From: a virus
Virus genome (UHGV): UHGV-1566927
DNA: 19,632 nt
Direction: 5' to 3' (one strand)
Shown here: piece by piece, positions 1 through 3,000 of the stretch
Position numbering within the stretch: the stretch's first letter is position 1
How the letters are laid out: each line of letters begins with the position of its first letter
Program-made: the position numbers

Positions 1-3000
1 AGCAAGGCGGGAAGTCGGGAGATAAGTCATTGATAAAGTGGCGGAGAGAGGGGGATTTGAACCCCCGGTAGAGTTGCCCCTACTCCGGTTTTCGAGACCT
101 ATCCTCTTTCAATTGCTATCAAACACTTAACCGCGTAATTGAGAAAATTGTGCAATTACTGCACATCACAAATTCAGTAAGTTACGTCATGGTGTGCTCA
201 GAATTTCTCATAGTTTTGGCTTTTAAAACTTCAGATCGCCGGGTTATCGTCTTCGGTGGCCCGGTTAATCAGATGCGTCAGAACTCCCTTTACATCCACC
301 TCATCCAGTACCTCACCTTCAAGAACTTCACCATCTACCGTTATCAGCGCATCACCTCTAGGTTTGGCAAAGTGACAACCACCTGAGTACGAAATCAGGT
401 ATGTGCTTTCTGGCGATGGCTTCATACCATTCTCAATCACCGCTAGTCCATGCGAAGTCTCAATCACCAGGCTGTTAGCCGTGACGCCGCAGATAGTCTC
501 TATGGTGAGCGCGCGTTCAATGTAGTCTTTGGCTGGACTTGGGAACCCCATATCAAAGCCCTCCGTTCGGGTTGTACATGAACCACGTCTTGTTCTCGCC
601 ATGGTCAGGGGTGATGTCTTTGAAGCAGGTGGTGTATCTGGCTATCCAAAGGTTCGCCTCTTCCATGCTGAAGTGCAGTTGACCTTTAGTAGTTCCTGAA
701 CAAAATCAGCGGTTTTCACAATTCTGCGGCCTGACCTTTCATGCACAATAGAGGCCCTAAATGCAATTTTGATATCTGAACGACGCGGCATAGTTTCACC
801 TCCCAATAAATGCTGTATGTACATACAGTGTATCGCTTTAAGGTAGTCGATCAAGTTGTCTGATGGTGCTAAACTTTCAGCCTTTCAGAATTGACTGATT
901 TTTCTCATGTTAAAACTTTTTGCTAAGTACACATCGATTGGCGTTCTCAACACACTCATTCACTGGGTTATGTTTGGCATATGTATATACGGATTATCTA
1001 CAAGCCAAGCGTTAGCTAACTTTGCTGGGTTCGTCGTAGCCGTTAGTTTCAGCTTTTACGCTAATGCGCGGTTTACGTTTAAAGCATCAACATCTACGCT
1101 TCGCTACATGCTTTACGTTGGCTTTATGGGAACGTTGAGCGCTGCTGTTGGTTGGGCAGCTGATATGTGTGGATTACCTCCGATTATTACGCTTGTGGCA
1201 TTCTCAGCCATTAGTCTCGTATGTGGCTTTTTCTATTCTAAGTTCATTGTCTTTAGGGAAGCGAAATGAAGATATCTTTAGTTGTTCCTGTCTATAACGA
1301 AGAAGATACAATACCAATTTTCTATAAAACTGTTCGTGATTTTGAGGAGTTAAAAAAATATGAAATTGAAATTGTTTTTATAAACGACGGAAGTAAAGAT
1401 GGCACTGAGTCAATTATAAATTCAATTGCCTCATGGGATCCTCTTGTGGTCGCATTATCGTTCACTCGTAACTTTGGTAAAGAGCCGGCATTGTTCGCAG
1501 GACTAGATCACGCAACTGGTGACGCAATAATTCCTATTGATGTAGATTTGCAAGACCCTATTGAAGTCATTCCTCATTTGATTGATAAATGGCAAGCTGG
1601 CGCTGACATGGTTCTTGCTAAAAGAACGGATCGCTCAACAGATAGCAGACTTAAGCGCAAATCTGCTGAGTGGTTCTACAAACTTCATAATAAAATTAGC
1701 TCACCAAAAATTGAAGAAAATGTTGGGGACTTTCGCCTCATGTCGCGAGGGGTTGTGGAGAACATAAAACTACTTCCAGAACGTAACTTGTTCATGAAAG
1801 GAGTCCTTAGTTGGGTCGGTGGAAAAACTGATGTTGTAGAATATGCGCGCGCCGAACGTGTAGCAGGGGACTCAAAATTTAATGGATGGAAATTGTGGAA
1901 TCTAGCACTTGAGGGAATAACTAGCTTCTCAACTTTTCCATTGAGAATGTGGACATACATCGGCCTTATCGTTGCTGGAATTTCATTTTTCTATGGAATC
2001 TGGTTAATACTTGATACCTTGGCGTTTGGAAATCCGGTCAGAGGATACCCATCAATACTTGTCTCTATCTTATTCTTGGGTGGAGTGCAATTGATTGGTG
2101 TTGGCGTTCTTGGTGAATACATTGGGCGTATATATATCGAAGTTAAAGCTAGACCGAAGTACATTATTAAGGGAAATAAAAAATAATGAATGTTAAAAGC
2201 ATTTCTTTAAACAAACACACCATAGTTTATTCATGTTTGTTTTTCGCATTTTTGATACAATTTATCAACCTGCCAGCTTATGATGATGATTTGAATAGGT
2301 TTGGCTGGAATTTTATGAAGCTTGCATACCAAGGGCGAGTTGTTACCGAGCTTTACTACTCGTCTTTATATTTATTCCAACAATCCTTACCTGTTAACAT
2401 TTACACAGCCAACCTTATTATCATTGGCGTCGTAATGTTTTTTACCGCTAAGTATTTTTATGAGTCGCTACAAATTCATAACCTCCCAATACTTACCGTA
2501 GCGCTTGTAATGATACACCCATTTATAATTGAAAACCTTTCATATCATATAGATTCTATAGGGATGGGGATGGCGCTATGCATAGCAGTATTCGCATCTG
2601 TTTTTGTATGTAAAAACAAAGTAATTTACTATCTACTTCCTGTTACTTTATTGACATTAGCATCCGCGATGTACCAATCCTCAATTTCAGTGTACTGTTC
2701 CACTGTTGTATTGGTATCAACTGTGTTAAGCCTATCTGATAAGACCAGCACCAGGGATGTTATAATCTACATAACAAAGAAAATTGTCATTTTCTTATTC
2801 TCCATCTTAGGCGCTTTTATTTTATATAAAATCTTCGTAACCTCACCTTATATACAAGACAAATCAAAGTTAATACCATTTACTGGTGAATTCATTCATA
2901 AGTTAAGCTTAAATGTAAGCAGGGTTATTGATGTAATCTATAGCAGCCTTAATGATCTACAAATTCTAATCATTGCATCAATGGTGATGATATACTACGT

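Follow-up and report, generated by a model that had tools for sequence, protein, structure and literature searches.

Does the incomplete tRNA gene close to the left end of virus genome UHGV-1566927 mark the border between a prophage and its host chromosome and, if so, which gene was the target and which end of the prophage is seen? The stretch analysed here, hereafter the window, is 19,632 nt long. A first-pass annotation, made from the sequence alone, had described at 39–99 on the minus strand a 61-nt 3' part of a tRNA-Ser(CGA) gene, and had proposed that it is the att duplicate left by phage integration into the 3' end of a tRNA gene. Read directly, the plus strand of this segment is TGGCGGAGAGAGGGGGATTTGAACCCCCGGTAGAGTTGCCCCTACTCCGGTTTTCGAGACC. 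Its reverse complement, GGTCTCGAAAACC...CTCTCCGCCA, aligned with positions 30–90 of the K-12 serU gene for tRNA-Ser(CGA) without a single difference (61 of 61 nt), and the same 61-mer was found, letter for letter, at 3469–3529 of locus L002. When the 61-nt piece alone was searched against 28 Gb of E. coli genomes, the blast E value was 2e-22, and a chance resemblance can therefore be dismissed.

That the 5' half is missing, as had been claimed, was borne out. ARAGORN called no tRNA gene in the whole window, so that no complete tRNA is present at 39–99 or elsewhere in it, and a search across the window for the 29-nt 5' half of serU, allowing up to three mismatches, found none. A scan of the window with Rfam gave no match to the tRNA model, only partial or antisense look-alikes, namely a plastid 3'UTR family in antisense, which is similar to tRNA-Ser, and a piece of a tmRNA T arm, both of which were rejected as spurious. 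In intact serU, ARAGORN places the anticodon at position 35 (35–37). The fragment therefore corresponds to tRNA positions 30–90, and its start lies 3 nt ahead of the 7-nt anticodon loop. It begins with the final 3 nt of the anticodon stem's 5' strand and goes on through the anticodon loop, the long variable arm and the T arm to the 3' strand of the acceptor with CCA. The extent initially given, from the anticodon loop to CCA, was correct at the CCA end, but the start has to be moved 3 nt into the 5' strand of the anticodon stem. The coordinates, the strand and the tRNA identity of the first-pass annotation were upheld.

Comparison with an uninfected strain located the junction. The unoccupied serU site of K-12 is colinear with window 1–99, and the aligned sequences part exactly at 99/100, with empty-site sequence on one side of this sharp break and phage genes on the other. 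Identity to K-12 alone is not conclusive for host origin, because about 340 nt in the attP of phages ev099 and mEp332 correspond, with near identity, to the host spacer and the 61-mer. The flanks of closely related contigs were more informative. Three public contigs retrieved by an exact GtrA match (L009, L010 and L012) are 100% identical to window 1–11269, and they continue leftward, in the gene order of K-12, into yodB, zinT, msrQ, msrP, hiuH, hprRS and hchA; window-identical contigs that include the left host flank are 130–810 kb long. Positions 1–38 are therefore chromosomal and foreign DNA starts at position 100, which upholds the border originally drawn, with host DNA over about 1–38. 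Judged from these sequences, the insertion site is serU, between yodB and mtfA of E. coli (Table 1).

Table 1. Features of the window, from the host flank to the insertion sequence at its right end.
Feature	Position	Strand	Basis
Host chromosome: yodB-serU spacer directly downstream of serU, B' side	1-38	.	100% identity to K-12 MG1655; contigs run into yodB, zinT, msrQ, msrP
serU 3' fragment: att core direct repeat, int-distal junction (attR)	39-99	-	61/61 identity; no 5' half
Phage-derived att arm, P-arm equivalent, non-coding	100-230	.	Identity with the empty site stops at 99/100
Candidate arm-type integrase site TGAGAAAAT	140-148	+	Motif
Terminator-like hairpin, 3' of the UmuD-like gene	149-165	-	Hairpin search
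Candidate arm-type site TGAGAAATT, inverted near-copy of TGAGAAAAT	202-210	-	Motif
UmuD'/HumD-like gene, 106 aa as called on public contigs	231-551	-	phrog_3469 'UmuD-like', 1e-41
Small gene upstream of the UmuD-like gene; probable ATG at 791, 49 aa	642-828	-	Translation, phrog_3893
Perfect LexA box CTGTATGTACATACAG, ahead of the small gene	813-828	-	LexA-box scan
gtrA, gtrB and gtrC-type O-antigen glucosylation operon, lysogenic-conversion cargo	907-3613	+	PF04138, PF00535, PF14264
522-aa polytopic membrane protein, further cargo	3646-5214	+	About 8-9 hydrophobic segments
Structural genes: tail spike, TipJ/J, tape measure, tail tube, head-tail connectors, portal, 56-aa gene	5258-19517	-	Pfam
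Terminal inverted-repeat end of an IS186/IS421 (IS4-family) element within the prophage	19535-19632	.	Sequence; 98 nt inside the IS

If the fragment is an att duplicate, an intact tRNA gene and a tyrosine integrase are expected at the opposite end of the prophage, as had been predicted. The window itself holds no second att copy. Among complete E. coli RefSeq genomes and phage records, none contained this prophage at more than about 89% identity, and the far end was therefore sought in draft and metagenome contigs, where it was reached through a look-up of the tail-tube protein and a search for integrase homologues. NCBI contig MCCQ01000067.1 (L009/L018) is identical to window 1–15615. Through an internal deletion, the tail-completion gene of this contig is joined to an integrase remnant that retains the C-terminal 199 codons, and beyond this remnant lie an intact tRNA-Ser(cga) gene, mtfA, asnT and yeeJ; the 61-mer is present at both ends, in the same orientation. 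A homologue search with the integrase remnant retrieved full-length proteins of 329 aa, 100% identical to it over the common part. Look-up of this 329-aa integrase (P0003) led to contig_124 (L028) of JGI sample 3300039332, a sample that also includes contig_052 (L004/L010); this contig is identical to the window as far as the IS, where it stops. The order on contig_124 is a lambdoid early region, cI/cro-like genes, a DUF4224 excisionase-like gene, the integrase, intact serU, mtfA and yeeJ. In contig_124 and at eight other loci, the 329-aa PF00589 integrase lies 115 nt from serU, with the DUF4224 excisionase-like gene before it.

Both copies of the repeat could be seen on a single 21-kb locus in a related remnant (L031), at 912–972 and 11106–11166, that is 10.2 kb apart. 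An identical 61-mer lies inside the intact far-end serU of MCCQ01000067.1 (L018), contig_124 and this remnant. In addition, a related prophage (87–89%) lies between yodB and mtfA in the complete genome of Z142-3, where both junctions recur. Thus the predicted intact tRNA gene and tyrosine integrase were recovered from sister contigs and relatives, the integrase being truncated in MCCQ01000067.1, and the matching 61-bp direct repeat is present in DNA of the same lineage. The closest junction sequence is that of strain mip270_04, yet its locus is rearranged and has no far end nearby.

We conclude with high confidence that the fragment is the displaced 3' part of serU, at the int-distal attR (POB'-type) of a lambdoid prophage integrated in this gene. 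In the standard model for tRNA sites, the phage supplies the 3' part of the tRNA and the intact gene is regenerated at the int end (bioRxiv 10.1101/2020.11.02.365908). Applied to this locus, the model would involve site-specific recombination by the tyrosine integrase into serU, between yodB and mtfA, with a phage attP that brings its own copy of tRNA positions 30–90. Recombination between attP and serU would rebuild an intact tRNA gene beside int/xis at the far end, while the host's original 3' part, devoid of promoter and 5' half, would be pushed to the end seen here. Judging from other integrases of this type, the crossover would take place in the anticodon-loop region; it leaves no trace, because the 61 nt of the phage copy and of the host copy do not differ. 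The identity block, which starts at position 30 and extends from the anticodon stem-loop to CCA, fits the anticodon-loop class among the sublocation classes of Williams 2002, as summarised in bioRxiv 10.1101/2020.11.02.365908.

The junction is therefore of a standard, already known kind, a textbook att duplicate at the int-distal end, formed at a known site with a known type of integrase, and it opens no new question of integration biology. Its value is practical: the prophage boundary is fixed to the base (99/100), which helps annotation and the bookkeeping of serotype conversion, and the element is assigned to the ST64B-type serU integrase group. The site is on record for prophages of STEC O145:H28 (PMC7067040). 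In 5423 complete E. coli genomes, window 1–130 matched at 7553 places, and a second, unannotated copy is present in many of the records. This fits a frequent occupation of serU, the extra places having been inspected in part.

Three other origins of the fragment were weighed. It might be a mere tRNA pseudogene, produced when an unrelated deletion or IS rearrangement removed the 5' half of serU, since deletions and IS insertions do occur in this lineage. The break, however, falls exactly where the identity to phage attP begins in ST64B and in Klebsiella phages, no IS end adjoins 99/100, and same-lineage contigs have at their far end an intact serU with the same 61-mer, all of which makes such an accident extremely improbable. 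Practically negligible, too, is the chance that positions 1–99 are themselves phage-borne, as the attP copy of an unintegrated or excised molecule. The long spacer plus 61-mer carried by ev099 and mEp332 as free phages gives this idea its substance, but the identical contigs of 130–810 kb run into yodB, zinT, msrQP, hiuH and hprRS, and in the phage copy of this integrase family the sequence diverges right after CCA, with CTATTCAAGC against CTTTATCAAT in the host.

A little less remote, although still very unlikely, is a scar left by an earlier or different serU element, the phage body having arrived by recombination or replacement, or sitting in a tandem array; the junction would then belong to another element than the phage beside it. 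In its favour, lambdoid prophages at serU have mosaic genomes in which replacements take place (PMC7067040), the same phage body is joined to another integration module at icd, ev099 and mEp332 represent a second family of serU phages, and in the rearranged strain mip270_04 an AraC-family gene lies to the left of the fragment. Against this, the arm at 100–230 and the humD/gtr genes are kept together at the scar in Z142-3, in the L031 remnant and in all same-lineage contigs; the far end has one cognate integrase of the ST64B type with a matching attP arm; and the left flank is host DNA rather than another prophage. A module exchange in the past, moreover, leaves the identity of the 61-mer unchanged.

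Between the core and the first gene, the non-coding arm of this attR is shared with the relatives Z142-3 and L031. The motif TGAGAAAAT and its inverted near-copy in this arm are matched by three copies in tandem on the int side, and ST64B has a TTTTCTC motif at a comparable position. Local clustering and conservation near the core suggest that these copies could be arm-type integrase sites. This reading is put forward as a hypothesis only, because across the whole window TGAGAAAAT is not enriched over chance, and because of an overlap with a T-tract: the first TGAGAAAAT copy doubles as the T-tract of the terminator-like hairpin.

Beyond the arm, the genes confirmed what had been surmised of the terminal cargo, namely that it consists of a gtr locus and an SOS locus: GtrA, GtrB and GtrC were matched by Pfam, and a UmuD-like protein is encoded downstream of a LexA box. 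The longest ORF at the UmuD-like gene reaches position 602 (231–602, 123 aa). An exact-protein look-up of this 123-aa ORF gave no match, because public gene calls use an internal ATG, as in L009, where the protein called has 106 aa. Only the N-terminal 26–42 residues of the UmuD-like protein weakly match the NCBIfam HumD/UmuD models, the HumD match being far below cutoff. The gtr operon has a GC content of 37% and its gtrC is of the GtrII type. At 34% GC, the gene of the 522-aa membrane protein has no family match in Pfam, PHROG or NCBIfam. The annotation of the structural genes to the right also made use of precomputed Pfam matches on identical contigs and of the existing annotation of 86%-identical relatives. 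The humD-like genes, gtrABC and the gene of the 522-aa membrane protein can thus be placed as phage-borne cargo adjoining attR.

The position of the fragment relative to this cargo raises the question of whether it has a role beyond that of an integration scar. Its orientation is sense with respect to the LexA-controlled UmuD-like operon, which ends 130 nt upstream of it. SOS read-through transcripts would then end in a tRNA-like 3' module made of variable arm, T arm and acceptor, and such a module might undergo processing, make the mRNA more stable or give rise to a tRNA-derived small RNA. Geometry is all that speaks for this. The terminator-like hairpin stands between the UmuD-like gene and the fragment and counts against it, and folding of the RNA from 30–235 was no better than that of shuffled sequence (z = -0.33). 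We consider a role of this sort, including transcripts with such an end, very improbable.

Among known systems, Salmonella phage ST64B is the nearest in its integration module. Its integrase, Sb28, is 84% identical over 328 aa to the integrase of the present prophage. The attP beside its int contains a tRNA-Ser(CGA) 3' part with the same start, GGTCTCGAAAACC (GGTCTCG), and CCA is followed by the same CTATTCAAGCACTTAC; the int-side arms of both elements also have tandem GAGAAAA(A)T repeats. The insertion site on record for ST64B is serU (PMC10100743). In other respects the two elements differ. The tRNA part of ST64B is of the Salmonella type, that of its host, whereas here the sequence is that of E. 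coli serU, and the phage bodies are unrelated at the DNA level (no megablast match). Near its attP, ST64B carries the type III effector glycosyltransferase gene sb26 and a tail fiber assembly gene, whereas the window has humD-like genes and gtrABC beside a siphovirus-type tail module. The int-distal arms also differ, except for TTTTCTC about 40 nt from the core. Integrases about 87% identical to the 329-aa protein were found in Klebsiella phages located beside tRNA-Ser and mtfA.

Other phages and prophages, namely ev099/Radostvirus, mEp332, PhiR70_1, SerU-LTIIb and prophages of STEC O145:H28/O157, use the same serU site, and their identity block ends at the same tRNA boundary, GAGACC. In contrast to the 61–63 nt seen here, their attP has about 340 nt in common with the host, made up of the spacer downstream of serU and the 61 nt, and their att arms are unrelated to those of the window beyond 2–6 nt. 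The gtrIC element of Shigella flexneri 1c was rejected as the same element, since its site is tRNA-Pro/yejO and not serU (PMC4924310).

The reverse combination, a similar body with another integration module, was found at icd in E. coli 23CRST032. Its prophage is 86% identical at the DNA level over window 867–19538 and has the same layout: a gene 3' fragment, a HumD-like gene, gtrABC, tail spike, tail and head genes and, at the other end, xis, int and the intact gene. It differs in that the target is the protein-coding gene icd, that its integrase module is another one, and that the tRNA fragment is missing; an icd 3' duplication in the style of e14 and phage 21 is found instead. Cargo next to attR is thus characteristic of this type of phage, and its att/int module can be exchanged.

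In phage lambda, the int-distal junction is POB', the int-proximal arm carries the sites P'1–P'3, and the core is a 15-bp intergenic segment. The junction studied here resembles lambda attR in being int-distal and in joining a phage arm with putative arm-type sites, a core common to attB, and host DNA; the three tandem repeats of the int-proximal arm are likewise reminiscent of P'1–P'3. It differs from lambda by its 61-bp block within a tRNA gene, as against a 15-bp intergenic core, and its arm sites are putative.

The window stops, and the rest of the prophage is unseen, because a copy of IS186/IS421 breaks the assembly. The IS end sequence is multi-copy in 2146 E. coli genomes, and in strain 64EVA it adjoins an IS421-family transposase gene. 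An IS-free allele is present in L003, and the opposite IS junction was found in a metagenome contig (L037), which ends with the capsid gene, GGGGAAACCCC and the IS end. The insertion point lies between the capsid gene and the 56-aa gene, and GGGGAAACCCC is found on both sides of the IS. Look-ups of the portal protein and of a 294-aa protein reach only contigs that end at the IS. The linkage across the IS of the window half (contig_052) and the int half (contig_124) is inferred. The size of the missing part fits the 86% relative: the distance from portal to int is about 24.5 kb in the relative, and about 23.6 kb precede the end of int on contig_124, the start of which is not placed relative to the IS.

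Sister strains of this lineage show several independent internal deletions, and the integrase is truncated in several of them. Together with the IS insertion, these deletions and truncated integrases indicate that the element is decaying in this lineage; it may no longer be an active prophage but a fixed remnant.

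The prophage is eroding independently in several strains, and the end that carries gtr and humD is retained. Different internal deletions were found in sister strains, the sequence being otherwise identical to that of the window. One of them fuses the tail-completion gene to the integrase gene at about codon 131, with a loss of roughly 28 kb, and others partly remove the genes for the tape measure and J. Positions of these and of the other features are collected in the table.

At the right end of the window, an IS186/IS421 element of the IS4 family is inserted into the 33-nt spacer that separates the gene for a 645-aa capsid protein from a 56-aa gene. 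Its target is the palindrome GGGGAAACCCC, which flanks the IS on either side. Every public contig identical to the window stops at this insertion, and therefore the assembly was truncated by the IS. A sequence resembling the target palindrome, GCGGGGTTTCCCC, is located at window 14768-14780.

Coordinates of the features in the window and in the compared loci
Feature	Location	Strand	Remark
Two-gene unit with LexA box	window 231-854	-	
522-aa ORF	window 3646-5214	+	immediately 3' of gtrC
Deletion points in sister strains	window 15615/15616; also about 13368, 13668, 12256		L018-L022
IS186/IS421 element	window 19535-19632; insertion point about 19527-19538		
IS186/IS421 insertion locus, other contigs	L037 2290-2352; L003 1340-1375		L037, metagenome contig with opposite IS junction; L003, IS-free allele
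Long host-like block	L006 2770-3100; L005 2060-2390		phages ev099 (L006) and mEp332 (L005), vs K-12 L002 3192-3530

Within the LexA-boxed unit, the gene for a 49-aa protein of unknown function (phrog_3893) precedes that for a 106-aa UmuD-like protein. The latter starts with the GFPSPA motif, at which processed UmuD' begins, and the HumD and UmuD models match it only across its first 26-42 residues. RefSeq naming of its relatives is inconsistent ('DNA polymerase V', 'S24 peptidase', 'HumD family'). The 522-aa ORF encodes a polytopic membrane protein with about 8-9 hydrophobic segments, has a GC content of 34%, and gave no match in Pfam, PHROG or NCBIfam; the protein may act as another O-antigen-modifying enzyme, one that is so far uncharacterised.

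For the tRNA fragment, the top Rfam match was the plastid psbI-rps4 3'UTR family (window 42-93, plus strand, 40.9 bits versus a gathering score of 68), antisense to the fragment. It most likely reflects tRNA-Ser-like sequence caught in the family model, and not biology at this site.

Phages ev099 and mEp332 represent a further family of lambdoid phages that integrate at serU. In both, about 340 nt match the host yodB-serU spacer together with the 61-nt tRNA part at about 97-100% identity, whereas the repeat of the ST64B-type module is far shorter (61-63 bp). This block has the look of host DNA that was captured, or of an att homology of unusual length. E. coli mip270_04 matches window 1-551 most closely (94%; L008 47908-49805); in this strain an AraC-family regulator, also present on the int side of ev099, takes the place of yodB on the left side of the tRNA fragment. 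The region as a whole is close to thrW and to a heat-resistance island, and the locus seems to be what remains of a serU phage after rearrangement or recombination.

The prophage half that came from the JGI sample with the window-identical contig has a tRNA-Arg(tct) gene of its own in its early region (L028 5299-5374), and a tRNA-Arg is also found in the icd-integrated relative (L007 40789-40865).
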